NCBI GenBank assembly: GCA_031459535.1
Contig: JAVKIJ010000008.1
Span: 1-58,058, forward strand
Direction: 5' to 3'
DNA from: Candidatus Fervidifonticultor quintus
GTDB taxonomy: Bacteria; Sysuimicrobiota; Sysuimicrobiia; Sysuimicrobiales; Humicultoraceae
Length of the DNA: 58,058 bases
Every line of letters starts with the position of its first letter. The stretch's first letter is position 1. A program made the translations under genes and the position numbers. The notes below the pieces were generated by a model, which was given only the letters and a program-made list of their open reading frames with translations, ran no database searches and had not been told where the DNA came from. This document shows, piece by piece, positions 25,578 to 50,059 of this stretch.

Positions 25578-26525
25578 TCAATCGGGCACGATCCGCGTTC
25601 CCGTCTCGCCCGCCAGTGCCCGCTCGATGTTCTCAGGATTGGTGATGATTGCCTCGCGCCCACCCCGCTCCAGGTACCAGACGATGGCCTGGATCTTCGG
25701 CGCCATGCTGCCCGTGGCGAAGTGGCCACCCTCCTCCAGGTGACGTCGAGCCTCGGACAGCGTCATCCGCGACACCCACTCTTGATTGGGCTTCCCGAAG
25801 TTGAGCGCTACCTTCTCAACCGCGGTGCTGATTAGGAACAGATCGGCCTTGATGGCGGTGGCCAGCAACGATGAGGCATAATCCTTGTCAATCACGGCGG
25901 CCACGCCACGGAGGTTGCCCTCGGCATCGGCGACCACGGGCACGCCGCCGCCGCCGACGGTGATGACGGTGAAGCCGGCTCCGATCAAATTCAGCACGGC
26001 GTGCTCCTCCACGATGCGCCGCGGCAGCGGCGAGGGCACCACCCGGCGCCAGCCGCGGCCCGCGTCTTCCATGATCGCCCACCCTTCCTCATCGCGGCGG
26101 CGCTGTGCGGTTGCCCTGTCCATGTACGAACCGATGGGCTTGCTGGGAGCGGCAAACGCCGGGTCGTCGGCCGCCACCTCGACCTGGGTCACGACCGTGA
26201 CCGCGTGCTTGGCGAGGCCCATGCGCCGGAAGTGGTTGTAGAGGTTCTGCTGCAGCGCGTAGCCGATGGCGCCCTGGGTGTCGGCGCCGCACACGTCGAG
26301 CGGGACCTCGTGCAGTTCGTGGCGGGCCAGTTCGGATCGCCGGAGGATGAAACCGACCTGCGGCCCGTTCCCGTGGGTGATGGCCACGTCCCAGCCCTCT
26401 TTGATCATGGCGGCAATGTGTGCGCAGGTCTCGCCCGCAGCGCGGTACTGGTCCTCGACCGTCTGGTGTTGCGGGTCTTTGATGAGCGAATTCCCCCCGA
26501 TGGCGACCACAGCGACCTTCGGCAT
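25578..26525 (-). CDS. arcC: Carbamate kinase
   Basis: AIGGNSL, THGNGPQVG, KPIG, GWRRVVPSP, VIDKD, GSMAPK. Confidence 0.95.
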   Translation of the reverse strand: MPKVAVVAIGGNSLIKDPQHQTVEDQYRAAGETCAHIAAMIKEGWDVAITHGNGPQVGFILRRSELARHELHEVPLDVCGADTQGAIGYALQQNLYNHFRRMGLAKHAVTVVTQVEVAADDPAFAAPSKPIGSYMDRATAQRRRDEEGWAIMEDAGRGWRRVVPSPLPRRIVEEHAVLNLIGAGFTVITVGGGGVPVVADAEGNLRGVAAVIDKDYASSLLATAIKADLFLISTAVEKVALNFGKPNQEWVSRMTLSEARRHLEEGGHFATGSMAPKIQAIVWYLERGGREAIITNPENIERALAGETGTRIVPD

Positions 26526-26546: not shown

Positions 26547-27521
26547 CTACCCCATGGTCAGAGCCATGACCGCCTTCTGCACGTGGAGCCGGTTCTCTGC
26601 CTGGTCATACACCACTGACCGCGGACCGTCGATGACTGGGTCGGTGACCTCGATGTTCCGGTCGGCGGGGAGGGGGTGCATATAGATCGCCCCGGGCGCC
26701 AGCGCCATGCGCCGCTCATCGGTGATCCAGTCCCTGTACTTCTGGATGATCTGCGCGCCCTGCGCCTCATCGGTGGTGGTGAGCAGCGCACCCCAGCTCT
26801 TGGCGTAGATCACATCACTGCCCCGAAAGCCGGCGTCGAAGTCGTCCAGGATCTCGAAGCCCACCCCGGCCGCCCGGGCGTTGGCCCTGGCCTGCTCCAC
26901 CACGTCGGGCATCAGCCCAAACTCCGGTGGGTGTACCAGCCGCACGTTGAGGCCAAAGCGCGGCAACAGTAGGATCAGGTCTTGCGGAATGCTGATGGGT
27001 TTCTGGTAGCTGGCCGCGCAGGCCCAGCTCACGGTGACGGTCTTGCCGCGGAGATCGCCCTTCTTCTCCATGATGGTCAGCAGGTCGGCGAGCGTCTGGA
27101 ACGGATGCCACAGGTCGCACTGCATGTTCAACACGGGCACCCGGCTGGCGGCGGCCACCTCGTTGATGTAGCGGTTGCCCACCCCCCAATCCACGTGGCG
27201 GATGGCTATGCCGTCGTTGTAGCGGCCCAGGATCTCCCCGATCTCCTTGGCGGTGTCGCCATGGGCGATCTGGGTGGTCCGACTCTCGATGAACTGGGCG
27301 TGACCCCCCAACTGGGCCATGCCAGCCTCAAACGAGGCGCGAGTCCGCGTGCTCGGGAAGAAGAACAGCAGGGCCAGGACCTTGTGGAGCAGATAGGGGT
27401 GGGGGATCCCCAGAGCCCGTTTGCGCTTCAGGTCCACGGCCACATCCAGCACCGTCTCGATCTCCTCCCTGGTCCACTCCTGGAGCGTGATCAGATCGCG
27501 ACCCCGAAGATGCGTCTGCAC
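26547..27521 (-). CDS. Knotted-type transcarbamylase (YgeW/ArgF'-like)
   Basis: STRT, HPFQ, SWACAASYQKPISIPQ (YgeW-like loop), YAKSWG in place of the OTC SMG motif, HPLPAD. Confidence 0.8.
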   Translation of the reverse strand: MQTHLRGRDLITLQEWTREEIETVLDVAVDLKRKRALGIPHPYLLHKVLALLFFFPSTRTRASFEAGMAQLGGHAQFIESRTTQIAHGDTAKEIGEILGRYNDGIAIRHVDWGVGNRYINEVAAASRVPVLNMQCDLWHPFQTLADLLTIMEKKGDLRGKTVTVSWACAASYQKPISIPQDLILLLPRFGLNVRLVHPPEFGLMPDVVEQARANARAAGVGFEILDDFDAGFRGSDVIYAKSWGALLTTTDEAQGAQIIQKYRDWITDERRMALAPGAIYMHPLPADRNIEVTDPVIDGPRSVVYDQAENRLHVQKAVMALTMG

Positions 27522-27532
27522 GGCGCCCCCTC

Positions 27533-28486
27533 CTACTCCACCGCGCCCAGCACCAGCGCCAGCAGGGCCATGCGCACCACCACGCCGTTGAAGGCCTCGG
27601 TCCAGTACCGCGCATGCCGCGTGGCGTCCACATCGGTGGGCAGCTCGTCCATACGCGGCAGCGAATGCAGGATGATGGCTCCCTTCTTGGCTCGATCGTG
27701 CAGCATCTGGCGCGTGACCCTGTAGGCCGGCGGCGTGGTGCCCACCTCACCGGCGCGCTCGTCCCGGGCCTTGGTGTAGTCGGGTTGGACGACGGGCTCC
27801 ATGTAGATCACATCCGCCTCGCCGATCGCGTCTTCGGCGGCGGCCACCTCCTGGTAGCGGACGTTGCGCTCGTCCAGCTCGGCCTTGAACTCGGGCAGCA
27901 GCGACATCTGGGGCGGGGAAACCACGAACGCCTCCACGTCGAACTGGGACATGGCGTAGAGAATGGAGTGCATGGTCCGCATGCGCATGTCGCCCACCAG
28001 CAGGAACTTCAGACCGTCCAGCGTCCCTAGCTCCTTCCAGGTGGTGTAGAGGTCGGTGAGCACCTGAGTGGGGTGCTCGCCCCAGCCGTCGCCGCAGTTG
28101 ATGACCGGGACGGAGGCCCAGCGGGCCGCTTCATGGGGCGCGCCCTGCTGGAAGTGGCGCATGGCGATCACGTCGCCGTAGTATTCCAGCATGTGCACCG
28201 TGTCCTTGATGGACTCCTGGTAGAAGTCGCCGGCACGGGTCATCTTGACGTCGGCGAACCCGAGCACGCTGCCGCCCAGGCGCAGCATGGCCGCCTCCGT
28301 GGCCAGCCGGGTGCGGGTGCTGGGCTGGTAGAATGCCACGCACAGCGTCTTGTGCTTCAACAGGTCGGTGTTGCGCCGGTCCCGGGCGTAGGGTGCCAGA
28401 TCGTCGGCGACCTGGAAGACCCGGAAAAACTCGTTCCGCTCGAAATCCTTGAGCGACAGGATGTCACGGCCCAGAAAGCTCCTCAT
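27533..28486 (-). CDS. ATCase-fold transcarbamylase with an altered substrate pocket
   Basis: STRTR, MRH, NCGDG..HPTQ, HSLPR are present; YMEPVVQ replaces YMTRVQ. Confidence 0.82.
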   Translation of the reverse strand: MRSFLGRDILSLKDFERNEFFRVFQVADDLAPYARDRRNTDLLKHKTLCVAFYQPSTRTRLATEAAMLRLGGSVLGFADVKMTRAGDFYQESIKDTVHMLEYYGDVIAMRHFQQGAPHEAARWASVPVINCGDGWGEHPTQVLTDLYTTWKELGTLDGLKFLLVGDMRMRTMHSILYAMSQFDVEAFVVSPPQMSLLPEFKAELDERNVRYQEVAAAEDAIGEADVIYMEPVVQPDYTKARDERAGEVGTTPPAYRVTRQMLHDRAKKGAIILHSLPRMDELPTDVDATRHARYWTEAFNGVVVRMALLALVLGAVE

Positions 28487-28526: not shown

Positions 28527-29873
28527 TCATCGTTCGACGCCGGTGAAGAGCACGGCGACGCGCTCGCTGGAGTCCACGCCGCCCTCATCCAACAACTGCA
28601 GCAGTCCGGCCAGCCCTGCGGAGCCGGTGGGGTCCACGTTGATACCCGCGGCGGTGTGGGCCAGATCATGGGCACGCCTCAACATCTCCTCGGACACCAC
28701 CACCGGGAAGCCCCCGGTGGTCAGCATGCCGCGGACCACCGCCAGCCAGTCATACGTCTCGTCGTCCAGGATCCCGTGGGCGATGCTCTTGGGCTCCTGC
28801 TCCCACGGCCACATGAACGCCCGCCGGTGCGCGGCCGCGTAGCGCAGAGCCTCCTCGGTGTTCCCGGACTCGGCGGCGCGCCGGGCCACCAAGTCGTAGG
28901 CTCGCTTCAGCGGATGGGCGCCCAGCGTCTGGACCGCGTGGATGCGCGGGAGGCGCGCCAGCGCGCCCAGGCGCACGGCGTCCTCCAACGCCTGGACGCA
29001 TGAGCTCGCCAGGGCCCCACCACCCACCTGGACGATCAGGCGGTCCAGATCGCCGCCGCTGCCCGCCAGCACCGAGACGATCTCGAAGCCGAGCGTCTTG
29101 CCGCCCTCGATGGTCAGGCCGTTCTCCGGCCCCTGGCAGGTAAAGGGCAGCGCGCCGGCTGCGATCGCTTGCTGCAACCGGCGATACGTGGGGTCGCCTG
29201 ACCTGCCTTCCTCGCGTGGGCACACCGTGAGGCGCGCCCCAAGGCGTTGCAGACGATCCAGCACCGGCGGATCGGCCCACGGCGGGACGAAGACCTCCAG
29301 AGGGCGCCCGCCGGCCCGGGCCACCACCGCGGCCGCCAGGGCCGCGTTGCCGCAACTGGCGATCGCCAGGGGTCGGGGCCCGTTGACCCTGCCGGGCGCC
29401 AGGCCGATACGCTCCACAACCTCCAGGTGGATGAGCAGGCCCATCAGGTGCCGGGCCTTGTGGGAGCCCGAGACGTTCCCGGTTTCGTCCTTGATCCAGA
29501 CGCCCCCTCCCCCCAAGAAACCGAGCCGACGGCTCAGGTCCTCGCTGGGGCCGAACGGCGTCACCACGAACCCGCGGCCGTCCACGCCGGCGACGGCCCG
29601 GTCCAGCCGCTCCACCAGCGCCACGTACTCGGCGTCTGAGGAGCCGTGGGACCGGGCCAGGTGGTACGAATACGACAGAGTCCGGTAGCGCACGAACGGA
29701 TTGGGCTCTCCGCCGCCCGGGAACTGCAGCCGCGCAGGATCCATGCGGGTGGCCATCACGTGGTCGATGTCGTCCCCCGGCCGCGCGTTGGGACAGCGGA
29801 ATGGATAGGGCTCCTCCGGCGGCGCCTCCACCCCGCACCCCGCGCAGACCACGACGATGGGCAGGCGGCTCAC
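28527..29873 (-). CDS. Threonine-synthase-like fold-II PLP enzyme
   Basis: [25 protein letters not shown]-terminal CxxC; GTGA overlap with the upstream gene. Confidence 0.8.
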
Positions 29874-31369
29874 AGGACCCGCGCCGCCCCGGTCCGGCCG
29901 TTGAACTCCTCGATCATCGCATCCCACACCGGGATGATGGTGCGCATCTGGCGCCAGAAGTGCTGATCGCGACGTGCCTCGAAGTCGGCCAGGGAGACAC
30001 CCTGCTGCTCGACCCAGGTGTAGTACCCCAGGTTGAAGATCCGGGTGCGCTCGGCGTGCGTCAGTTCCAACAGGTGGTCTATGGTGACGCCGGCGAGGCA
30101 CTCGCCAAACGTCTCCGCTGCGGCCACCTCGTCGAAGCCGCCGGGGAAGTACTTGCGGATCGACTTCGCCCGCTCGCTCCCGTACATGGCGGCGCCGTCG
30201 GTGGCCACGGTCACGATGACATCCGACGGCCCCCACCGGTAGTACCTGGCCACCTTGATGGCCGCCAGCACGTTGCAGATGCTGGACAGCCCCAGCGCGC
30301 CCAGCCCCTCGACCAGCGCCGGAGGCAGTCCCTTGCGCCGGACAAGAAACTCACGCCCCGGGTCGGTGTTGAACAGCACGTCGAGCCGATCGGTGTGCCG
30401 GTCGGAGATGGCGGTGACCAGGTCGGTGTTCATCACGTTGTGGATCAACGGAATGTGCTTGTCGCCAATGCCCTGGATGTTGTGTTCACCAAAACCGTTG
30501 TACAGCATGGTGGGGCACTCCAGAGCCTCGGCGGCCACGATGAGGGTGCCGTGCCGTTCCTTGAGGTAGTCGCCGGCGCCCAGGGTGCCGGCCGAGCCAG
30601 ACGCCGCCACGAACGCGCTGAGCCGGAGACTCGGGTCTCGGGCCGCAAGCGCTTCGAAGATCTGTTCCAGAGCCCGACCGGTGCACAGATAGTGCGCCAG
30701 GTGGTTCCCGAACTCGGAGAACTGGTTGAAGATGACCACGTCGGGCTCCTGCTCCAGCTCGGCGCATCTGTCGTAGATCTCCTTGACGTTGCTCTCCGTG
30801 CCCGGCGTGCGAATGATGTCGGCGGGATCGCTCACCCATCGCTCCAGCCAGGCGAAACGCTCGCGGCTCATCCCCTCGGGCAGCACGGCGATCCCGCGGC
30901 ACCGCATGATGCGCGAGATGGCCACACCACCGCGGGCGTAGTTCCCTGTGGACGGCCACACGGCCCGGTGGCGGGTGGGGTCGAACTGGCCGGTGATCAC
31001 CCGGGGCGCCAGGCAGGCATAGGCCGCCAGCACCTTGTGCGCCCGGATCATGGGGAAACGGTCTCCCAGCGCGATGACCACGGGCGCATCCACACCGGTC
31101 AGCGCCTTGGGCAGCACCAGGTGTTCGGGCAGCGGCACCTGGGTGCGTCGGTCGGCAGCGTTGTACCAGTGCACCCGGTAGAGGTTCAACGGATGTGCGG
31201 CGTCGGGGTCAATGGCGGCCAAGGCCGCCCGAATGTACTGCGGGATGCTGCCGGGACTGGCGAGCTGGGCAAACGTGGGCAGCGCGATGCCCGCCTCCCG
31301 AAACCGACCAACGGCGCGGTCCCGGACCGCGGCGTCCACGAGATCGCGTTCCAATCCCAGTCTGCGCAT
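29870..31369 (-). CDS. Large fold-II PLP-dependent enzyme (cysteine synthase/Trp synthase beta superfamily)
   Basis: AHKV (putative PLP Lys), PSTGNY, NQF, SGSAGT, IQGIG. Confidence 0.8.
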
Positions 31370-31404: not shown

Positions 31405-32295
31405 TCAAGATGTACCGGCCCGCACCAGACGGGGGTCCAGGACATCGCGCAGGCCGTCACCGACCAGATTCAGGCCGATGACCAGCACCATGATCGCCAG
31501 GCCGGGGAAGATGGTCATCCACGGCGCTTGCCCCATGTAGACCCGGCCGCCGCTGAGGATGGTCCCCAGGCTCGGCACGTGGGGCGGCACGCCGCTCCCG
31601 AGGAAGCTGAGCAGCGCCTCGCCCAGCACCGCATACGCCACCGTGAACGTGGCCTGGACCACCGCCGGCGACAGGCAGTTGGGCAACACGTGGCGCACCA
31701 TGATCCTGGGATCCGGCAGCCCTAGCGCCCGAGCGGCGGTGACGTACTCGAACTGCCCCACGACCAGCACGCTGCCGCGGACCACACGGGCCATGCGGGG
31801 CGAGTACACGATGCCCAGCGCCACGATCACGTTGGTGGCACTGGGGCCCAGCGCGGCCATCAGCGCAATGGCCAGGATGACCGCCGGAAACGCCATGAGC
31901 GCGTCCATGATGCGCATGAGCAGGTTGTCCAGGCCCGGCACGTATCCCGCCACCAGCCCGGTCGGCAATCCGATCGCGGTGCTCACCACGACCACCAGGG
32001 CGCCGATGGCCAGCGACAGTCTGATGCCGTAGAGCACGCGACTGAACACGTCCCGGCCGAAATCATCGGTGCCCAGCGGGTGCCGCGCCGACGGCGGAGC
32101 CAGCCGCTCGGTGATGCGCATGGCCTGGGGGCTGTCCGGGGCCAGGACCGGCGCCAGGAGCGCGCTGGCCACCAGCGTCAGGATCAACGCCGCACCGGCA
32201 ATGACCACGGGCCTGCGGACCAGCACCCGCCAGCGCAACCGCCACGGCGAGACCGGAGGCAGCTCTGCGTGCCGAGCAGCCCTTGGCTTCGGCAT
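31405..32295 (-). CDS. DppC/OppC-type ABC permease
   Basis: HPLGTDDFGRD, EYVTAARALG, HVLPN, LVGDGLRDVLDP. Confidence 0.92.
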   Translation of the reverse strand: MPKPRAARHAELPPVSPWRLRWRVLVRRPVVIAGAALILTLVASALLAPVLAPDSPQAMRITERLAPPSARHPLGTDDFGRDVFSRVLYGIRLSLAIGALVVVVSTAIGLPTGLVAGYVPGLDNLLMRIMDALMAFPAVILAIALMAALGPSATNVIVALGIVYSPRMARVVRGSVLVVGQFEYVTAARALGLPDPRIMVRHVLPNCLSPAVVQATFTVAYAVLGEALLSFLGSGVPPHVPSLGTILSGGRVYMGQAPWMTIFPGLAIMVLVIGLNLVGDGLRDVLDPRLVRAGTS

Positions 32296-32297
32296 CG

Positions 32298-33239
32298 TCA
32301 GTACCGAATCCTGGGATCCACGAAGGTGTACATTAGGTCCACGAGCAGGTTGATCAGGACGTAGGCGGTGGCGATCAGGAGTACGATGCCCTGGATCACC
32401 GGGTAGTCGCGTCGCAGCACGGAGGTGATCAGCAGCTGCCCGACGCCAGGGATGGTGAAAATGGTCTCGGCCACCACATTGCCCCCCATCATCACGGAGA
32501 AGATGATCCCGACCACGGTCACCACCGTGATGAGCGCGTTGGGGAACGCATGGCCCATGGTCACCCGGGCGAACGACAGCCCCTTGGCGCGCGCCGTCCT
32601 GATGTAGTCCTGACCCATGACCTCGAGCATGGCTGTGCGCGTCATGCGGGCGATGAGCGCCGACTGGACGAATCCCATGGTGAATGCCGGTAGGATCAGG
32701 TACCGCAGCGCGACGCCCAGGCCGGCGGACGGGGGCTGGTACCCGGCGACCGGCAGCAGACCCCACCGGACGGCGAAGAGCAAGACCAGGTTCAACGCCA
32801 GCCAGAACTCCGGCACGGACACACCGAGAAAGGCCACCAGCGTCACGGCCTGGTCGAGCAGCGAGCCGCGACGCACCGCGGACAGGATCCCGGCGGGCAC
32901 GCCGATACCGATGGCGATGGCGATGGCCAGCAGGCTGAGCAGGACGGTGGGCAGGAGGTGCCGACGCACCGTCTCGGTGACCGGAAGGCCAAAGAAGATC
33001 GACGTGCCCAGATCGCCGCCGAACACCCGCTGGAACCACCGGAGCCACTGCAGGTGGAAGGGCGCGTCCAGGCCCAACTCGGCCCGCAGCCTGGCCACGG
33101 CCTCCGCCGGCGCGTCCGGCCCCAGCATGATGACGGCGGGATCACCAGGCGTGAGGTGAATCAACAGGAACACGATGGTCCCGACCAGGACGATGATCGG
33201 GACCATGGTGATCAGGCGTCGGGCAATGTAGGCCTGCAT
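32298..33239 (-). CDS. DppB/OppB-type ABC permease
   Basis: PGDP, GDLGTS, DYIRTARAKGL, RDYPVIQG, VDPRI. Confidence 0.93.
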   Translation of the reverse strand: MQAYIARRLITMVPIIVLVGTIVFLLIHLTPGDPAVIMLGPDAPAEAVARLRAELGLDAPFHLQWLRWFQRVFGGDLGTSIFFGLPVTETVRRHLLPTVLLSLLAIAIAIGIGVPAGILSAVRRGSLLDQAVTLVAFLGVSVPEFWLALNLVLLFAVRWGLLPVAGYQPPSAGLGVALRYLILPAFTMGFVQSALIARMTRTAMLEVMGQDYIRTARAKGLSFARVTMGHAFPNALITVVTVVGIIFSVMMGGNVVAETIFTIPGVGQLLITSVLRRDYPVIQGIVLLIATAYVLINLLVDLMYTFVDPRIRY

Positions 33240-33243
33240 CCCC

Positions 33244-34821
33244 CTAACGGGGCGTCACCGAGACATTCCAGAAGAACAAATCGGGGCGCGTCGTGAGCCC
33301 CCCGACCCCAGGCCGGGCAATCGCCAGATTGAAGAAGTCCCCGAACTTGACCCCCGGCACATCTTCCCAGTAGAGCTTCTGTACCTCTTCCCAGATCTTC
33401 TTGCGGGCCTGCTGGTCGGGCTCTCGGATGAGACGGCCGATCAGGCGATCCTTCTCCTCGGTCGTCCACCAGCCGGGCCAGGTGGGCCCGAGGATCACGG
33501 GCTGGATGGGCGGGTCGATACCCGGGCTGAAGATGAACGACGTGCTGAAGACCTCGTAGAGATCGGGGTTGGCGCGCCGCGAGAGCACCGTGGCCCAGTC
33601 CAGCACCTGGAGGTCCATCACGAAGCCCGCTTCCTCGAGCTGCTGGGCGGCGATGAGGGCGGGCTTGTACGCCCAGTCGAACGCCTGGCTGGTAATCCAC
33701 CGCACGGGCTGGCCCCGGTATCCCGCCTCGGCCATCAACCGCCTGGCCAGGGCCAGGTCACGACGGTTGTAGGGCCCGAGCCCCTCCCGTGAGTACCAGG
33801 GTGACTCCTTGAACATCAGGCTGCCGTCCACGCGGAACATGAGCGGGTTGCCGAAGGTGCCCGCCATGATCTTGCCCATGTCCAGGGCGGCCAGGAATGC
33901 CTGCCGCATCCGACGATCGGCAAACAGCCCCTTGCGCTTGTTGAACACCGCCATGGGCTGACCGTAGGGTTTGAGGATCAGCGTCCGAACCCGCGGGTCG
34001 TTGCGCAGTTGCCCGTAGGCGTCTGGGGTGATGCTCTCCGCATAGTCATACTGGCCGGTGAGCACGCCGTTGATGCGCGTCTGCACGTCGGGCACGATGA
34101 CGAAGCGCAGCCGATCCACATATGCCACTTTGGCGCCACCGTAGCCGTCGGGGCTCCCCGGCCGCATCGCGTACCCGTCGAACCGCTCCAGTTCGATGAC
34201 CTGACCGGGCACCCAGCGGGCGAACTTGAAGGGACCGGTGCCGATCAGCTCCGAGAGCTCGGTGATGCGCCTGGTGCCAGCAGCATCCGCTACCGCGTGG
34301 GGGTAGATGCCGGCCAGTTGGATGGGCTGCGCCAGCGCCGCGATCAGGACGCCAGAAGGCTGGCGGAGCCGGATGACCACCGTGCGGGGCCCACGCGCCT
34401 CGACGGCTTCCACGTCGTCGCGGAAGAAGGGCACAGCGACCACCGCCAGCTTCATCCACCGCTGCAGGGAGGCCACCACGTCCCGCGCGGTCATCTCCTG
34501 ACCGTTGTGGAACTTCACGCTCGACCGCAACGTGATCGTGTACTCTCGCCCGCCTGCGCCCACGGTGAATCCCTCGGCGAGCATGGGGATGATCTTGAAG
34601 TTCCTGTCGTAGGTGAAGAGCGGCTCGAAGGCGTGCCACGCGGTGATTTCGGTGAGGTACGCCGTGGTGGAGTGGATGTCCAGCGCCGGTGGGTCGGCGC
34701 TGAGGGCCACGGTCAGGGTCCCGCCACGCGGCGGCGCGGCCGGCGCCCCGGCCCATCCGGGCGCGCTACCCCACAGGCCGATCACGACCAGCACCAACAG
34801 TGCCTGCCAGCGTGTCATCAT
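33244..34821 (-). CDS. Family 5 (peptide/nickel) ABC substrate-binding protein
   Basis: Signal peptide; GGTL, LRSSVKFHNG, IGTGPFKF. Confidence 0.9.
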   Translation of the reverse strand: MMTRWQALLVLVVIGLWGSAPGWAGAPAAPPRGGTLTVALSADPPALDIHSTTAYLTEITAWHAFEPLFTYDRNFKIIPMLAEGFTVGAGGREYTITLRSSVKFHNGQEMTARDVVASLQRWMKLAVVAVPFFRDDVEAVEARGPRTVVIRLRQPSGVLIAALAQPIQLAGIYPHAVADAAGTRRITELSELIGTGPFKFARWVPGQVIELERFDGYAMRPGSPDGYGGAKVAYVDRLRFVIVPDVQTRINGVLTGQYDYAESITPDAYGQLRNDPRVRTLILKPYGQPMAVFNKRKGLFADRRMRQAFLAALDMGKIMAGTFGNPLMFRVDGSLMFKESPWYSREGLGPYNRRDLALARRLMAEAGYRGQPVRWITSQAFDWAYKPALIAAQQLEEAGFVMDLQVLDWATVLSRRANPDLYEVFSTSFIFSPGIDPPIQPVILGPTWPGWWTTEEKDRLIGRLIREPDQQARKKIWEEVQKLYWEDVPGVKFGDFFNLAIARPGVGGLTTRPDLFFWNVSVTPR

Positions 34822-34850
34822 GCTCCCTCCCCGGCGCCCGCGGGCGGCGG

Positions 34851-35867
34851 TTAGAACTCCCCGCCCGCGAACGCGTCGATCATGAGGCGGACGTCGTCGC
34901 CCAGCGGATACAGCACCGGGCACGTACACCCGGCGTCCACGTACTCCCGCACCTTCGCCCGGCACTCCTCGGGGGTCCCTGACGCCGAGATCATCTGGAC
35001 CGCCTCATCCGGGACGATGTGCATGGCGCGGCGGATCTGGTCGGGCCCGGCGGGCCACGTGAGCACCTTGTTGATCTCTTCGATCAGGCCCGGGTCGACC
35101 CCGCTGGCCTTCATGATGTGCGGTTGCTGGCCCAGATACTGGGTCAGCAACTCCCGGGCGCGATCCAGGGCCACGGTGCGGTCCCGGTCGAGGGAACACA
35201 CCACCAGCTGGGGTCGGTCGATGTCCTCCACCCGCCGGCCTGCCCGGGCGGCACCGGTGGCAAGGGCCGCCATGGCCTCGCGGTTGTAGCGCGGGCTGAC
35301 CATGTAGTTGAGCAGGGCGCCGTCGGCGATCTGGCCGGCCAGCTCCATCATCTTCATGCCGGTGGCGCCCACATAGATCGGCACCCGCTTGGGCGACCGG
35401 TCGCCGTGCACAATGTCAATCTCGATGTCGGTGACGCGCACGAACTCGCCGTGATAGGTGACGCGTTCCATAGCCAGCAGACGGCGCGTCACCTCCACCA
35501 CTTCGCGCATGGCTTGCAGCGGCCGCCTGCGGGTGATACCGACCTTGGACGCCAGTGGATCCCACCACGCGCCGATGCCGAGCATTACCCGGCCGGGCGC
35601 CAGATCATCGAGGGTCGCAAACGTGGCGGCCAGCAAGCCCACGTTGCGGGTCCAGCAGTTGACCACGCCGGAGCCCACCTTGATGCGCGTGGTCACGGCC
35701 GCAAACGCCGCCATGGGCACCGTGGCCTCGCGCACCAGACGGCTCTCCGCCTGCCAGACGGCCTCAAAGCCGCGGGCCTCGGCGTAGCGCACGTAGTCCA
35801 TGCCATCACGGATCGGATGCTTGTCCTGCAGGTACAGCGCCACGCGCCCCTTGCTGGTGACTGCCAT
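34851..35867 (-). CDS. LLM-class (Mer-like) flavin/deazaflavin oxidoreductase
   Basis: [44 protein letters not shown]. Confidence 0.85.
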
Positions 35868-35869
35868 GG

Positions 35870-37198
35870 TCAGGCACCTCCTGCGGGCGTGAAGGGATGG
35901 ACGCCGACCGCCTCCAGGCGCTCCCACAGACGCCGGGCCTGCTCCGCCGTCTCCGCGGCGAGCCGGGCCGCATCGGCGCGCACCAGCTTGCGGTTCTCGA
36001 CCACGACGTCGCCCGCCACGAGTACGTCGCGCACGCACGCGGCGTGAAATCCAAACACCCAGTGTCCGGCCAGGTTGTCCTGGACCAGCGGCGTCGGCGC
36101 CGGATAGTCGAGCACCACCAAGTCAGCCGGCGCGCCGGGTGCGATGGTCCCCAGCAGCGGTTCGGCGAAGATGCGGCCCGCCAGGCGAGCGGCCTGGGCC
36201 GCGCGCGCCAGCGGCCACGTGATGGGCAGGAACACGTCCTCTTCGCGCGCGCGGAAGTACGCGGTCTGCACCTCGCGCCACATGTCGCCCCCGATCCCGT
36301 CCGTGCCAATGACGACCCGCTCGCCCAGCCGTCGCAGCGGGGTGTGCCCGACTGCGTTGTTCATGTTGGAGGTGGGGTTGTGGGCCACGGTGGCGCCCGA
36401 GGTGACCAGCAGGGACATCTCGTGCTCGTCGAGGTGGATGCAGTGCGCCAGCAACGCGTCTGCGGTCAGGGCGCCCGCCGCAGCCAGACGGGCGACGGGC
36501 GGCATGCCGAACCGCGCCAGGGCATCCCTGCGGTCCACCGGGTCCTCGGCGACGTGGATGTGGAGACCGACCCCGGCCGCCCGGGCACCTTCCACGCAGG
36601 CGGCCAGCGTCTCCGCCGACAGCGTGAAGGACGCGTGCGCGCCGAACAGGCCCCTGGTGAGGGCGCGGCGGCGGGCCAGGAACCGGCGGTTCTCCGCCAA
36701 CCCGGCAGACGCCCGCTGCGGCCCGTCACGGTCGCTCACTTCGTAACACAACACCGAACGGAGGCCGAGGCCTTCCAGCGCCTCCGCCACGATGTCGAGC
36801 GACCCGTCAATGGCGTTGGGCGAGGCGTGGTGGTCGATGAGCGTGGTGGTGCCGGCCAGCAGCGCTGCGGCGCCGCCGGCCAGGGCCGAGGCCCGGATCA
36901 TCTCTTCGTCCAGCGCCCGGTCCAGCCGCCACCACACGCGCTGGAGGATCTGGAGGAAATCTGCGGGGGGCGCCAGCCGGTAGGGCATCCCGCGCGCGAG
37001 CGACGAGTACAGGTGAGTGTGGCCGCAGACCTGCCCGGGGACGATCAGGCACCCCGAACAGTCCCGCCGCACACCCCCCGCGGGCGCCGCGCCTACGGCG
37101 CGCACCCGCCCATCCTCGACGACCACGTCCCCCGATGCGACCCGGGGCGGGTCCAGCGAGCTGACCACCAGGGCGCCGGTGAGGCTCAGCGTGGCGAT
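35870..37198 (-). CDS. SsnA-like amidohydrolase; probable ATC start at 37198 (first canonical start is GTG at 37168)
   Basis: [53 protein letters not shown]. Confidence 0.82.
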
Positions 37199-37223: not shown

Positions 37224-39836
<2,613 letters not shown>

Positions 39837-39840
39837 GGGC

Positions 39841-42294
39841 CTATCCCTCTCTTTCTGGGGCCCCACTGGTGCGGGTACCTTCCTGTTGCTCGCCGGGTGT
39901 CATCAATTCCTGCTGCCCGGCTCCTAGACCGAAGTAATGGGGGACCGGCTCCGGCCCCGGGACATCCGGCGCTGGCGGCGGCCCAGCCGAGTGCGCCGGC
40001 GGGCTCAATCCCAAGAGATCGTCCGGACGGACGGGGACGCGGTTCAGCGCGCGGCCGGTGGCATCGCGCAGCGCCGCGACGATGGCCGCGGTGGACACCA
40101 CGGTCGGGAGCTCTCCCACCCCTTTGGCGCCGTAGGGCGCGCCCGGCTCAGGCTCCTCCACCACGGCGGTCTCTATCGCCGGCACGTCGAGGATGGTGGG
40201 AATCAGGTAGTCGGTGAACGAGGCGTTGCGGATCCGGCCGTCCTGGAGCTGCACTTGCTCCATCAAGGCAAGACCCAGGCCCATGGCCGTGCCACCTTCG
40301 ACCTGACCTTCCAGTCCCTGCGGGTTGAGGACCTTGCCCACGTCGTGAACCGACGCCACATGCACGACCCGCGCCAGGCCCAACTCGGTGTCCACGTCGA
40401 CGACCGCGCGCTGCGCGGCGAACGCCAGCATCACGTGCACGTCACCCTGGCCTCGGCCATCGAGCGCCTGCGTAGCTCGATGGTGATAGGTCCGCGTCTG
40501 CTCGATCGGCTCTTCCAGGAACGCATCAATGGGCCCCACGAGTTTCCCGCCGGCCAGGACCTGACCGCCCTCCAGCGTCAGCTCCCCCGGGAGGACCCGC
40601 CCGCCCGCGGCAGCGTGGCGCCGCACCCGGTCGAAGAGCACTTCCCGGACCGCTTGGCAGGCTCGCTGAACTGCGCCGCCGGACATGACGGATTGTCGGG
40701 AAGCCGACGTGGATCCCGCCGAACCCACTGAGGTGTCTGGGGGATGGATCATCACGCGCTCCACGCCCAGTTCGGTCCGGGCCACCTGGGCCAGCACCGT
40801 GTGGATCCCCTCGCCGACCTCGGCTGCGGCGCTGTGGACCTCGACCACCGGCCCTTCAGGGCCGAGGAAGAGCTTCACCCTCGCCTCGGACGAGTCGTCG
40901 AACCCCCCGCTATAGGCGATGTTCTTGTAGCCCACCGCGAACCCCACCCCGCGGCGTAGACTCTCGCCGCGCGACACATTGCCCGTCCCGCCCGGCAGGA
41001 ACAGCGGGCTGCGGCGGGACGGCTCGGCTTCCCCCGCAGGGAGCGGCATCGCCAGGCATCGCTCGATGACCCTCCGCACGGGCGCGCTGCCACCGATGAC
41101 CTGGCCGGTGATCGTCACTGATCCCGGGCCCAGCGCGTTCTTCAAGCGCAGCGCCACCGGGTCCATACCCAGCGCCTTTGCCAACCTGTCCATCTGCGCC
41201 TCATACGCGAAGCAGACTTGAGGCGCGCCAAACCCGCGCATGGCGCCGCAGGGAGGGTTGTTGGTGTACACGCATGTGGCCTCCACGAGCGCGTTGGGCA
41301 CCTCGTAGGGGCCCGCGGCGAAGGTGGCCGCGTTGCCCAGGACGGCCGACGATGACGACGCGAAGGCCCCTCCGTCGAGCAGCACACGGGCGTAGACGTT
41401 GAGGAGCCGCCCGTCCCTGGACGCGCCGTGGCGCATCCAGATCCGCGACGGGTGCCGGTGTACGTGACCGAAGAACGACTCCTCGCGGGAGTAGACCATC
41501 TTCACCGGCTTCCCCGTGCGAAGCGCGAGCATGGCCGCGTGAATGTGCATGCTGACGTCTTCCCGCGCTCCAAACGCGCCACCCACCCCCGCCAGGTGGA
41601 GCCGCACCTTCTCCAGTGGCAGGTTCAGGCATGGTGCAATCTGCTGCCGATCCACGTGGAGCCACTGCGTGGCCACGTAGAGATCGACGCCGCCGTCTCC
41701 CGAGGGTACCGCCAGCCCGGACTCCGGCCCCAGGAACGCCTGGTCCTGCATCCCGGTCTCGTAGTAGCCCTCCACCCAGACCTCCGCGGGCGCGTCGGGG
41801 TCGCCGTGCACGATCCGGAGATGGCGCAGCACGTTCCCGAACTCGTGGACGCGGGGCGCGTCGGCGCGCAGTGCCTGTTCCATATCGGTGACCGCGGGCA
41901 GCACCTCGTAGTCCACGACGATCCTGGAGGCGGCGCCCCGCGCGACCTCGAGATCGACCGCCGCCAGGATGGCCACCGGTTCACCAACGAACCGGACGCA
42001 TTCCCACGCCAGCACGGGCTGGTCCTCAAACTCCAGCCCGTAGGTCTTCCTGCCCGGCACATCGTCGGCCAGCAGGACCGCGTGCACGCCGGGAGTGGCC
42101 ACAGCCCCGGACACATCGATGGACCGGATGCGCGCGTGCGGGTGCGGGCTGCGCACCGTGAGCCCCCACAGCATGTCCTCGGCCCACAGGTCGCTGCCAA
42201 ACAGGAATGAACCCCGGACCTTGGGAACGCCATCCACGCGCCGCGCGCTTTCCCCGACGCCCCCCCGCGTCCGCGCCACCGCCCCGACACTCAT
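39841..42294 (-). CDS. Xanthine dehydrogenase Mo-binding subunit (PucD-like)
   Basis: DQAFLGPE, GGAFGARE, AMRGFG, SASRQ, GQVEGG, KGVGE. Confidence 0.88.
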   Translation of the reverse strand: MSVGAVARTRGGVGESARRVDGVPKVRGSFLFGSDLWAEDMLWGLTVRSPHPHARIRSIDVSGAVATPGVHAVLLADDVPGRKTYGLEFEDQPVLAWECVRFVGEPVAILAAVDLEVARGAASRIVVDYEVLPAVTDMEQALRADAPRVHEFGNVLRHLRIVHGDPDAPAEVWVEGYYETGMQDQAFLGPESGLAVPSGDGGVDLYVATQWLHVDRQQIAPCLNLPLEKVRLHLAGVGGAFGAREDVSMHIHAAMLALRTGKPVKMVYSREESFFGHVHRHPSRIWMRHGASRDGRLLNVYARVLLDGGAFASSSSAVLGNAATFAAGPYEVPNALVEATCVYTNNPPCGAMRGFGAPQVCFAYEAQMDRLAKALGMDPVALRLKNALGPGSVTITGQVIGGSAPVRRVIERCLAMPLPAGEAEPSRRSPLFLPGGTGNVSRGESLRRGVGFAVGYKNIAYSGGFDDSSEARVKLFLGPEGPVVEVHSAAAEVGEGIHTVLAQVARTELGVERVMIHPPDTSVGSAGSTSASRQSVMSGGAVQRACQAVREVLFDRVRRHAAAGGRVLPGELTLEGGQVLAGGKLVGPIDAFLEEPIEQTRTYHHRATQALDGRGQGDVHVMLAFAAQRAVVDVDTELGLARVVHVASVHDVGKVLNPQGLEGQVEGGTAMGLGLALMEQVQLQDGRIRNASFTDYLIPTILDVPAIETAVVEEPEPGAPYGAKGVGELPTVVSTAAIVAALRDATGRALNRVPVRPDDLLGLSPPAHSAGPPPAPDVPGPEPVPHYFGLGAGQQELMTPGEQQEGTRTSGAPEREG

Positions 42295-47454: not shown

Positions 47455-48849
47455 TCAGGGTTCCGCCAGGGGGCCGCGGACCAGATACTGGCCCGCGGCC
47501 GGCTCGCCCACGAACCGGTCGCCATCCACCACCTGCCGGCCCCGGACCCAGACGGCGACGGGGATGCCGCGCACCCGCATGCCCTCGAAGAGGTTGTAGT
47601 CCACCCGCATGTGGTGGGTCCGGGCGCTCAGCGTGCGCTCGGCAGTCAGATCCCACAGCGCCAGGTCTGCGTCGGCGCCTGGGGCGATGGTGCCCTTGCG
47701 AGGATACAGTCCGAAGAGCTTGGCCGGGTTGGTCGCGGTCAGCTCCACGAACCGGTTCAACGAGAGGCGGCCGCCGGCCACGCCGGCATGGTGGAGGGTG
47801 CTCAACCGGTCCTCGATGACCGGCAGGCCGTTGGGGATCTTGGTGAAATCGCCGCGGCCCGCCATCTTGTGGGTGGCGAAGTCAAACGGGCAGTGGTCGG
47901 TCGACACCACCGCCAGGGTGCCGTCCCGCAGCCCGTTCCACAGCGCTTCCTGGTCGCGTCTGGTGCGCAGCGGCGGAGAGCACACGAACTTGGCGCCCTC
48001 GAACCCGGGCCGGTCCAGGTCGTCGGCGGTGAAGAAGAGGTACTGCGGGCAGGTCTCGGCCCAGACCCGCGCGCCCGTGGCCCTGGCGGCTCGCACCTGT
48101 CGCAAAGCCAGCTCGCACGTGAGGTGCACCACGTACAGCGGCGCGCCGGTGGCGGCGGCCAGCGCGATCGCGCGGCCGGTGGCTTCCCCCTCCAGCTCTG
48201 GCGGCCGCGTCAGCGCATGATACTTGGGCGCCAGACGGCCGGTGGCCAGCGCTTCCTCTACCAGGAGGTCAATGGCGTCGCCGTGCTCGCAGTGCACCAT
48301 GGTCAGGAGCCCGACGGCTGCCGCCCGACGCATCACCCGAACGATGTCGGCGTCCTCGAGCATGACCCGGCCCCTGTACGCCATCAACACCTTGACGGAC
48401 GTGATCCCCCAGGCGGGTAGCGATGCGATCTCCTCGAGCACGGCCGGTGTGGCATCGGTGATGGTCATGTGGAACCCGTAGTCAATGCATGCCTTGTCGC
48501 GGGCCTTGGCCTGCCACAGTTCCAGCGCCTCACGCAGGCTGGCGCCCTTGGGCTGAATGGCGAAGTCAAGGTGCGATGTGGTCCCACCGAACGCCGCGGC
48601 GACCTGTCCGGACTCGAAGTCGTCGGTCGAGGTGATCCCGCCCAGGGGCATGTCCAGGTGCGTGTGGACATCAATGCCGCCGGGCAGCAGGTGCAGCCCG
48701 GCGGCGTCGACGATGCGGGCACCGCCCGCGGGCAGGTGTCGTCCGATGACCGCAACTCGCCCGGCTGTGACCAGGACGTCGCCCTGGTAGGTCTGCGCGG
48801 CGGTCACGATGGTGGCGCCGCGGATCAGGGTGGCAGAATCACCGGCCAT
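47455..48849 (-). CDS. hydA: Dihydropyrimidinase/hydantoinase
   Basis: GGIDVHTH, SVKVLMAY, HCE, VVHL, ETCPQYL, STDHCPF, IPNG. Confidence 0.9.
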   Translation of the reverse strand: MAGDSATLIRGATIVTAAQTYQGDVLVTAGRVAVIGRHLPAGGARIVDAAGLHLLPGGIDVHTHLDMPLGGITSTDDFESGQVAAAFGGTTSHLDFAIQPKGASLREALELWQAKARDKACIDYGFHMTITDATPAVLEEIASLPAWGITSVKVLMAYRGRVMLEDADIVRVMRRAAAVGLLTMVHCEHGDAIDLLVEEALATGRLAPKYHALTRPPELEGEATGRAIALAAATGAPLYVVHLTCELALRQVRAARATGARVWAETCPQYLFFTADDLDRPGFEGAKFVCSPPLRTRRDQEALWNGLRDGTLAVVSTDHCPFDFATHKMAGRGDFTKIPNGLPVIEDRLSTLHHAGVAGGRLSLNRFVELTATNPAKLFGLYPRKGTIAPGADADLALWDLTAERTLSARTHHMRVDYNLFEGMRVRGIPVAVWVRGRQVVDGDRFVGEPAAGQYLVRGPLAEP

Positions 48850-48859
48850 GCCCGGGCAC

Positions 48860-48888
48860 GCGGCAGGGCGCGGCTGGCGCCCTGCCGC
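48860..48888 (-). terminator. Perfect 12-bp GC hairpin downstream of the BMP gene (terminator or 3' stabiliser)
   Basis: GCGGCAGGGCGC-ggctg-GCGCCCTGCCGC; no U-tract. Confidence 0.55.
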
Positions 48889-48907
48889 ATCCGCCGCCTG
48901 GGACCGA

Positions 48908-50059
48908 CTACGGTTCCTTGGGCCAGGGCCCGACGACGCCCGGGGCCGCCCACTCCAGGCTCGTGAGCTCGCCGACAGTCATGCGCTTGCCCGCCGGAAC
49001 CCGCAGGATCCCCTTGCGGTCCTTGATCGGCCCCGTGAACGGGTCAAACGTCACTTTGGGATCGGCCATCTGCGCGTGGCGCTTCATCACCAGCGCGTAG
49101 ACGGACAACCGGCCGAGATCCGGGGTCATCACCCGGACCGCCTCGAGCCTGGCCTTGTAGGCCGGGTTGATCGGCACGCCGAAGTCACCGCCCAGCTCCA
49201 CGGCCTTCTCGGCCAGCAGCCACCAGTAGTCCACGTTTGCCAGGTTCTCGGTAGTGTACTTGCCCGCGTGGACCTTGGAGAGGAAATCCACGTAGATGGT
49301 CTCCCAGTGGACGAGCTGGCCCGAGACAACGTGGTTGGGCGCGAACTTCTGCATCGGCGAGTAGTGCCCGAAACTGGGGAGGTTGCGCCGGGCGGCAACC
49401 TGCACCACCGTGGGCGAATCCTCGGTGAAGGCGAACACATCGGCGCCTTCGGCGATGAGGGCCTCGGTGGCCTCCTTGGCCGCGGCTGGATTGAACCACT
49501 CGAAGATCCACCGGACGTGAACCGTCGCTTTGGGGTTGACGGTCCGCACCCCCAGGGCGTACGCGTTGAGGTGCCGCTTGACCTCCGGAATCGGAAACGC
49601 GCCCACATAGGCCACCTTGTTGGTCTTGGTGAGGGCGCCGGCCATCAGGCCGTTGAGATAGTAGATCTGGTAGAAGTCCGCCATGTAGGTGGCCATGTTG
49701 GCATGGCGCTTGAAGCCCGACGCGTGAGCGAAGATGTGGTTGGGGTATCGCTTGGCCGCCGCCAGCGTCCCGTCCATGAAGCCAAAGCTGGTGGTGAAGA
49801 TGACCCTGGCACCTTGCTGGATCATGCGGTCGATGTACGGTTCAACCTGGCCCTCCGGCACCGACTCCACGTAGATGGTCTCCAGCCACGGGAGCTTCTG
49901 CATGGCGATCTTGCGCGCCTGATCGTGGGCATGAGTCCACCCGTAGTCGCCGATGGGCCCCACGTAGATGAATCCCGCCTTGAGCTTCGGCTGCGCGAGG
50001 CCCGGCGCTGCCAGGCTCGCCAGCAGTACGAGGACCACCACAGCGTATCTGTAGCCCAT
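48908..50059 (-). CDS. BMP-family nucleoside/purine ABC substrate-binding protein
   Basis: GFIYVGPIGDYGW, TTSFGF, FPIPEV, WFNP. Confidence 0.9.
   Translation of the reverse strand: MGYRYAVVVLVLLASLAAPGLAQPKLKAGFIYVGPIGDYGWTHAHDQARKIAMQKLPWLETIYVESVPEGQVEPYIDRMIQQGARVIFTTSFGFMDGTLAAAKRYPNHIFAHASGFKRHANMATYMADFYQIYYLNGLMAGALTKTNKVAYVGAFPIPEVKRHLNAYALGVRTVNPKATVHVRWIFEWFNPAAAKEATEALIAEGADVFAFTEDSPTVVQVAARRNLPSFGHYSPMQKFAPNHVVSGQLVHWETIYVDFLSKVHAGKYTTENLANVDYWWLLAEKAVELGGDFGVPINPAYKARLEAVRVMTPDLGRLSVYALVMKRHAQMADPKVTFDPFTGPIKDRKGILRVPAGKRMTVGELTSLEWAAPGVVGPWPKEP

Follow-up and report, generated by a model that had tools for sequence, protein, structure and literature searches.

Why does a gene named for pyrimidine synthesis stand among genes of purine breakdown? 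This question is raised by a 58,058-nucleotide stretch of DNA (hereafter the window; contig JAVKIJ010000008.1, positions 1 to 58,058, forward strand) from the metagenome-assembled genome of Candidatus Fervidifonticultor quintus (GCA_031459535.1; 3.1 Mb, 138 contigs, 88.85% complete, about 69% G+C), in which public sources label a protein of 317 amino acids (aa) aspartate carbamoyltransferase (ATCase). A sequence-only reading of the window had assigned this protein to the breakdown of purines and paired it with a YgeW-like enzyme and a carbamate kinase. We found the kinase gene next to it, its product passing model NF009007, and genes for SsnA, an XdhD-like enzyme, an F420-dependent enzyme and a hydantoinase on the same contig; as judged from the predicted gene products, the island encodes the greater part of the reductive urate (2,8-dioxopurine) pathway. 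We propose, with a probability of about 0.62, that the ATCase-like protein is a catabolic carbamoyltransferase of this pathway that replaces the hydrolase YgeY and phosphorolyses an N-alpha-ureido group, the likeliest substrate being 3-amino-2-ureidopropionate and the next candidate 2,3-diureidopropionate.

By its residues, the protein is not a canonical ATCase. It has the two-domain OTCace_N plus OTCace fold (PF02729, 145.4 bits; PF00185, 90.2 bits), is 36-41% identical to canonical ATCases (PyrB), passes TIGR00670 by 13 bits (249.6 vs a cut-off of 236.95) and misses NF002032 (214.9 vs 263). Together, the name given by public sources and the passed TIGR00670 cut-off bear out the expectation that it would be mis-annotated as pyrB. 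The motifs from which the sequence-only reading had argued (STRT, MRH, HPTQ, LP, MRTMHS, YMEPVVQ and TRAGDFYQE) are all present in the translation, and its claims that R229 of E. coli ATCase is lost and that the loop of S80 and K84 is replaced held up in a profile-profile alignment (hhalign) between 23 sequences of the family and 43 canonical ATCases, from which we take the residue pairs below, E. coli numbering first. Retained are the carbamoyl phosphate residues S52-T55, R105, H134 and Q137, which do not vary in any of the 201 family sequences (a set made up of the window protein, 120 cluster representatives and 80 locus translations, in which one protein may occur twice), and R167, which binds the alpha-carboxylate. 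In the first loop S80 becomes R84, K83 becomes F88 and K84 becomes Y89; in the second, T228 becomes E230, R229 becomes P231, Q231 becomes V233 and R234 becomes D236, and K232 is likewise lost. P266 becomes S275, turning HPLP into HSLP. Five residues that are invariant across the 43 canonical sequences (K84, R229, Q231, E233 and R234) are all replaced in the family, in agreement with the earlier view that this is not an aspartate-specific enzyme. The new loops are themselves fixed, TRAGDFYQE and YMEPVVQxDY being invariant in 200-201 of the 201 family sequences, and they bring in three acidic residues (D87, E230 and D236) that are also invariant in the family.

What K84, R229 and similar residues do in E. 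coli ATCase is known in part from the older mutagenesis literature. The remodelled loops would be those that hold the beta-carboxylate of aspartate in ATCase. A retained carbamoyl phosphate site and R167, together with the replacement of K83, K84, R229, Q231 and R234 by F, Y, P, V and D, therefore fit a substrate with an N-carbamoyl-alpha-amino-acid head and a neutral or cationic side chain. The residue equivalences were reproduced by HMMER against the P. abyssi ATCase and by a MAFFT alignment of a mixed sequence set. An AlphaFold2 model of the protein (pLDDT 94.5, pTM 0.93) has as its best Foldseek match the structure of P. abyssi ATCase with N-phosphonacetyl-L-aspartate (PALA; 1ML4, TM 0.88); no pseudo-ATCase structure was among the fold matches listed, and the fold search cannot split ATCase from pseudo-ATCase. 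In comparison to PyrB of P. abyssi and E. coli, the protein thus has the same fold, carbamoyl phosphate site and R167, but has neither pyr neighbours nor PyrI.

The class to which it belongs has been known since 2013, when Barba et al. (PMC4016543) described "pseudo-ATCases", paralogues that carry the ATCase annotation and still have STRT and HPTQ but no longer RXQ. As set out in the available text of that paper, the pseudo-ATCase Rxyl_2847 of Rubrobacter xylanophilus is a ureidoglycine carbamoyltransferase, with which allantoate (diureidoacetate) is phosphorolysed to carbamoyl phosphate. The window protein resembles this class in its ATCase annotation, in its STRT and HPTQ, in the loss of RXQ (here P-V-V), in an altered motif 3 (HSLP, not HP[LG]P), in its position apart from genuine ATCases in a tree, and in its adjacent carbamate kinase, its purine-catabolic neighbours and its proposed role, in which a ureido acid is phosphorolysed where a hydrolase would otherwise act. 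Compared by signatures alone, its combination of HSLP and P-V-V is not an exact match to any of the three published signatures; the VXP signature would fit only after a shift of two residues, and P235 is alanine in 109 of the 201 family sequences. Its gene context is close to that of the subgroup 2 pseudo-ATCase of Nocardioides sp. JS614, which adjoins a ygeW homologue, xdhABC and hyuA and for which the available text of the same paper proposes no function. We found no literature that connects the reductive urate pathway with an ATCase-like enzyme, in a search that covered the main texts of both 2025 papers on the pathway, neither of which mentions one.

The tree check suggested by the sequence-only reading set the window family apart from the RxQ ATCases. 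In a quick tree of 99 rows, for which 88 of 149 listed representatives were kept and 61 dropped (fragments, fusions and motif-less sequences), 44 RxQ sequences group together with two exceptions among them. The 51 of 95 ATCase-side rows without RxQ nearly all have a TRxG-type loop and form basal clades, the deep order of which is unresolved. The window family is a clade of its own (SH-aLRT, an approximate likelihood-ratio test, 100) within a 17-row clade that lacks RxQ (support 96). It is also a tight family: identity is at least 76% inside and at most 50% to anything else, the 120 listed cluster representatives all reach at least 82% identity and range in length from 308 to 317 aa, with 113 at 317 aa, and among the listed representatives clustered at 50% identity two full-length sequences are at least 79% identical and the next at most 50%. 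At least 586 species-level genomes encode the protein. A large and diverse set of ATCase-like proteins whose loop is TRxG(D) and in which RxQ is missing (P0128-P0265) comes mostly from metagenomes.

As described in 2025 for E. coli and Clostridium sporogenes, the reductive urate pathway uses XdhD, YgfK, SsnA, HyuA, YgeW, YqeA, YgeY and YgeX (PMC12507026; bioRxiv 10.1101/2025.04.24.650524), and in the Chloroflexota clusters of Li et al. an F420 enzyme of the luciferase family stands in the place of YgfK (PMC12507026). To judge from the published parts list, the window and E. coli have in common an XdhD-like enzyme, SsnA, a hydantoinase, one carbamoyltransferase of the YgeW branch and a carbamate kinase; the window differs in having no YgeY or YgeX and, instead, an ATCase-fold carbamoyltransferase and two unrelated pyridoxal phosphate (PLP) enzymes. 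YgeY and YgeX homologues in the source genome are none better than 27% identical, and none lies in the window. Among the 80 best-matching loci of the family, YgeY occurs at 40% identity or more in two and YgeX at 36-39% in two.

The sequence-only reading had the protein stand in for YgeY, and support for this exchange came from 301 evenly drawn genomes of Actinomycetota, the phylum of one carrier. SsnA was found in 23 of them, as a gut type in 11 (at least 527 bits) and as a soil type in 12 (320-429 bits); YgeY was found in 17 and the ATCase-like protein in six, with no genome having both. Each of the 12 genomes with soil-type SsnA has exactly one of the two genes: eight carry YgeY, on the SsnA contig, and in the other four the ATCase-like gene lies 2.6-5.8 kb away from SsnA. 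Of the eight genomes of the YgeY type, four (G053, G155, G206 and G263) are unpublished, as is a carrier of the ATCase-like gene that lacks SsnA (G287); without these the split is four to four. The count of carbamoyltransferase genes follows the same division, with three in 5/5 YgeY-type genomes, of which one adjoins SsnA (in four genomes) or lies about 6 kb from it (in the fifth), and four or five in 5/5 ATCase-like-type genomes, two of them in or near the cluster in 4/5; in the remaining one (G270) the second carbamoyltransferase is on another contig. This pattern matches the prediction of a non-orthologous displacement. The exchange of YgeY is separable from that of the PLP enzymes, as G094 has YgeY with the PLP pair and G144 has the ATCase-like gene with a YgeX-like lyase.

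In the scheme that we propose, the XdhD-like enzyme, the F420 reductase, SsnA and the hydantoinase would convert urate to 2,3-diureidopropionate. The carbamoyltransferase of the N-acetylornithine carbamoyltransferase (AOTCase)/YgeW branch would then use phosphate to take the 3-ureido group off 2,3-diureidopropionate, an analogue of N-acetylcitrulline, and the ATCase-like enzyme would use phosphate to turn 3-amino-2-ureidopropionate into 2,3-diaminopropionate and a second carbamoyl phosphate, where E. coli would rely on hydrolysis by YgeY. Carbamate kinase would make ATP from both carbamoyl phosphates, and the two PLP enzymes would process diaminopropionate onward in YgeX's stead. 3-Amino-2-ureidopropionate corresponds to carbamoyl-aspartate with the carboxylate exchanged for an ammonium group. 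We favour it as the substrate because YgeY takes a mono-ureido intermediate in both published schemes, as given in their available text: Liu et al. name 3-amino-2-ureidopropionate, and Li et al. have YgeY and YgeX turn the intermediate albizziin into pyruvate (PMC12507026). The activity, substrate, step order and ATP yield assigned here are predictions from sequence, and the figure of two ATP per urate would follow from the scheme by arithmetic. Somewhat short of even odds, and so held tentatively, is the fuller proposal that the charge of the pocket is inverted, that N-alpha-carbamoyl-2,3-diaminopropionate is phosphorolysed, and that the soil pathway keeps both ureido groups and gains two ATP per urate vs one in E. 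coli.

Several consequences would follow. Since the name pyrB is attached to this gene in at least 586 species-level genomes from soil and sediment bacteria (Actinomycetota, Chloroflexota, Planctomycetota and Sysuimicrobiota-like lineages among them), reconstructions assign to these organisms a pyrimidine step for which the gene is probably not responsible, and miss a step of purine fermentation. If the proposal is true, the ureido groups of urate would yield twice as much ATP at the substrate level, and this would be a second worked case, after allantoate, of a hydrolase swapped for an ATCase-fold phosphorylase. A 2025 commentary flags the order of ureido cleavage as unresolved (PMC12990295). 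As the chemistry of ATCase is on N-alpha, the exchange with YgeY would settle that order as 3-ureido first and 2-ureido second, giving a direct handle on how the groups are removed from 2,3-diureidopropionate.

Several points weigh against this proposal. The either/or relation with YgeY is drawn from small numbers of related genomes that are not independent, and two of the 80 loci (L012 and L021) carry the ATCase-like gene together with a YgeY homologue. The side-chain pocket residues would be those placed by alignment to ATCase, not taken from the model. An alternative MAFFT alignment produced an insert of eight residues (EPVVQPDY) and paired T-K-A-R-D-E-R with T-R-V-Q-K-E-R; we set it aside because HMMER, the mixed MAFFT alignment and hhalign all give R229 to P, because K239 varies (K in 160, Q in 20, A in nine, V in seven and S in four of the 201 sequences) while YMEPVVQxDY is invariant, and because the AlphaFold2 model ends the strand at M229. 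The order given in the available text of Li et al. is disputed, and under it a strict replacement of YgeY would cut the beta-ureido group of albizziin, unlike the chemistry of ATCase. Finally, no canonical ATCase was found in the source genome at its 88.85% completeness, and 18 of the 19 family genomes (G000-G018) showed none.

It is possible, though unlikely, that the two carbamoyltransferases act in the reverse order, with the ATCase-like enzyme removing the 2-ureido group of 2,3-diureidopropionate to give albizziin and the AOTCase/YgeW-branch enzyme phosphorolysing the albizziin. In 2,3-diureidopropionate, as the sequence-only reading had pointed out, a ureido group occupies the position that the beta-carboxylate has in carbamoyl-aspartate; the pseudo-ATCase characterised in the available text of Barba et al. 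uses the di-ureido acid allantoate, that of Li et al. reports albizziin as an intermediate, and albizziin is a short analogue of citrulline, a substrate of the ornithine carbamoyltransferase (OTCase) branch. However, the either/or pattern is with YgeY, a mono-ureido enzyme, and not with YgeW; the partner resembles AOTCase, which has an N-alpha-acylated substrate, so 2,3-diureidopropionate fits it better than free albizziin; and the three invariant acidic residues of the loops suit a cationic side chain over a ureido group. We regard as improbable that the ATCase-like enzyme cuts the beta-ureido group of albizziin, the reaction which the available text of Li et al. assigns to YgeY. The replacement of YgeY in the sampled genomes, together with the reported conversion of albizziin to pyruvate by YgeY and YgeX, would agree with such a role, but the kept ATCase fold, R167 and the holders of the alpha-carboxylate beside the carbamoylated nitrogen point to N-alpha chemistry, and enzymes known to transfer a carbamoyl group to the beta-amino group of diaminopropionate have been classed as OTCase relatives (PMC4581275, in its available text).

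Very little weight, in our view, falls on the two readings that leave the reductive urate pathway altogether. The housekeeping ATCase of the organism, with an unusual aspartate site, could be sought in this protein on the grounds that it passes TIGR00670, that pyrD, pyrF and carB are present in the source genome, and that the only four carbamoyltransferase-fold genes there are two for OTCase and the two in the window. The change of all five side-chain and closure residues invariant in 43 ATCases and the absence of pyr genes among its neighbours argue the other way, as does the pairing of the gene with a canonical ATCase (290-313 bits) in 5/5 carrier genomes of other lineages. The prediction that the real pyrB would be found elsewhere thus came true in those five and failed in the source genome and in 18 of the 19 family genomes. 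Searched at E 0.01, five family members gave one OTCase each. A search for pyrD and carB in five family genomes, G011 and G012 among them, located both genes. Four genomes of 93-98% completeness (G011, G012, G014 and G015; G011 and G012 at 97-98%, G012 in four contigs) have no ATCase-type gene at all and keep pyrF; of those without a urate cluster and without the ATCase-like gene, G011 and G012 keep pyrD and pyrF, and pyrF is also present in G015, for which the search did not extend to pyrD. As with pyrB, 18 of the 19 family genomes yielded no clear biosynthetic pyrC, and the synthesis of carbamoyl-aspartate and dihydroorotate in this family is a real gap. With or without the ATCase-like gene, the family has no recognisable carbamoyl-aspartate route, which speaks against a role of the gene as the missing pyrB. 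A comparably slight chance attaches to a ureidoglycine carbamoyltransferase that splits allantoate like Rxyl_2847. Such an enzyme would share the broad pseudo-ATCase class and a carbamate kinase in purine catabolism, yet subgroup 1 of Barba et al. has, in the available text, HPLA with AIA, AIS or SIA where the window protein has HSLP with P-V-V, and its context is uricase and allantoinase where the window has SsnA, XdhD, a luciferase-like monooxygenase (LLM)-class F420 reductase, PLP enzymes and a second carbamoyltransferase; the either/or pattern, moreover, is with YgeY.

The dihydroorotase-like candidates for pyrC were rejected, as all are catabolic amidohydrolases beside genes for an N-carbamoyl-amino-acid amidohydrolase or xanthine dehydrogenase. 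At one locus of the source genome (G000:C52:22472-25391, equal to L005:3472-6392), an allantoinase-like amidohydrolase adjoins an N-carbamoyl-amino-acid/allantoate amidohydrolase and a GntR regulator; from its gene content, we read it as a separate hydrolytic route for ureides or hydantoins. The two OTCases of this 3.1-Mb genome are full paralogues (G000:C58:807-1757 and G000:C115:5525-6457), both scoring above 419 bits with TIGR00658.

In agreement with the proposed catabolic role of the ATCase-like protein, related loci keep it in similar company. Our synteny counts rest on the best 80 loci, of which 39 have full 10-kb flanks. Within 300 nt downstream of the ATCase-like gene lie a second carbamoyltransferase in 45 of the 80 loci, XdhD in 23, carbamate kinase in four and XdhC in two, and within 300 nt upstream a threonine-synthase-like PLP gene lies in 42. 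The 39 loci with full flanks hold the second carbamoyltransferase (36), the kinase (30), XdhD (33) and SsnA (28); 37 have the second carbamoyltransferase or the kinase, 34 have XdhD, SsnA or the LLM enzyme, and five have none of these three. Among 31 related genomes, a count that takes in the unpublished G013, SsnA (at least 390 bits) and the ATCase-like protein occur in the same 12, on one contig in 10 of these; 17 have neither, and the other two genomes are cut at contig ends. By their titles, the best 80 loci come from Actinomycetota, Chloroflexota, Planctomycetota, one Candidatus Sysuimicrobiota and a few other phyla. The ATCase-like proteins are 76-88% identical across these different phyla and the partner carbamoyltransferases 64-85% (loci L009-L088), which suggests that the module may have spread horizontally and recently among soil and sediment bacteria.

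Table 1. Features of the window discussed in the text (positions counted from the first nucleotide of the window).
Feature	Position	Strand	Remarks
ATCase-like carbamoyltransferase ("pseudo-ATCase")	27533-28486	minus	317 aa; ATG with GAGGAGG 5' of it
Second carbamoyltransferase, AOTCase/N-succinylornithine carbamoyltransferase (SOTCase)/YgeW branch	26547-27521	minus	324 aa; 34% identity to E. coli YgeW
Carbamate kinase	25578-26525	minus	NF009007 387.9 bits (cut-off 266); 47% identity to E. coli YqeA
Threonine-synthase-like PLP enzyme	28527-about 29840	minus	start codon uncertain
Cysteine-synthase-like PLP enzyme	29870-31369	minus	499 aa
Dpp-type ABC transporter (two permeases and binding protein)	31405-34965	minus	named from translations
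LLM-class F420-dependent oxidoreductase	34851-35870	minus	family match; probable 2,8-dioxopurine reductase in YgfK's stead (available text of PMC12507026)
SsnA-type aminohydrolase, soil type	35870-37168	minus	NF005540 413 bits (cut-off 444)
XdhD-like molybdenum hydroxylase with 2Fe-2S domain	37224-39866	minus	TIGR03311 1014 bits
D-hydantoinase	47455-48978	minus	41% identity to E. coli HyuA; would probably open ureidomethyl-hydantoin to 2,3-diureidopropionate

In the window itself, the genes for the cysteine-synthase-like enzyme, the threonine-synthase-like enzyme, the ATCase-like protein, the second carbamoyltransferase and carbamate kinase form a tight row, read as an operon, on the minus strand (Table 1), with spacers of 40, 11 and 21 nt from the threonine-synthase-like gene to the kinase, the reading frame of the second carbamoyltransferase beginning 11 nt past the ATCase-like stop. 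Shine-Dalgarno sequences precede those starts in the row that were inspected. Upstream on the same strand follow the ABC transporter, the F420 oxidoreductase, SsnA, the XdhD-like enzyme, a PucD/XdhC xanthine dehydrogenase and an 8-oxoguanine deaminase, and farther out lie an adenine deaminase (plus strand) and the D-hydantoinase. No pyr genes are among the neighbours of the ATCase-like gene. The sequence-only reading was right that neither pyrI nor pyrC adjoins it: E. coli PyrI had no match by tblastn in the whole genome, and the nearest cyclic amidohydrolase is the hydantoinase, 19 kb off.

The same reading had called the partner carbamoyltransferase YgeW-like, which was correct as to its AOTCase/YgeW branch and did not hold for closeness to YgeW itself, as the partner scores 181.4 bits with NF005538 (cut-off 453) and is equally close to YgeW, AOTCase and OTCase. 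It falls below every curated cut-off (AOTCase 243.6 vs 288; OTCase 239.6 vs 306; the other YgeW model, TIGR03316, 166.5 vs 500) and is 72 residues shorter than E. coli YgeW (about 396 aa). Its motifs include QIAHG[DE]T, common to YgeW, and YAKSWGAL, common to AOTCase, and public sources label it OTCase or AOTCase; for a protein with these features, YgeW-like would be a fair working label. At locus L065, from a metagenome-assembled genome of Phycisphaerales, the ATCase-like gene and the kinase share a 17-kb contig with a true YgeW orthologue (60% identical to that of E. coli), not one of the 324-aa type.

The two PLP enzymes are divergent members of fold-type II, with best Protein Data Bank matches of 49 and 59 bits, and stand in the place of YgeX. 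Across the 80 loci, the threonine-synthase-like enzyme is present in 54 and the cysteine-synthase-like enzyme in 59. A paralogous branch of the latter, mostly 59-63% identical to the window's enzyme and in one case 48%, occurs in 13 Actinomycetota genomes (G097, G126, G180, G193 and others) that lack both SsnA and the ATCase-like gene, and the cysteine-synthase-like family therefore has a wider role. The Dpp-type peptide/nickel transporter lies between the PLP genes and the F420 reductase, and a similar insertion is found in one of the 80 related loci (L021).

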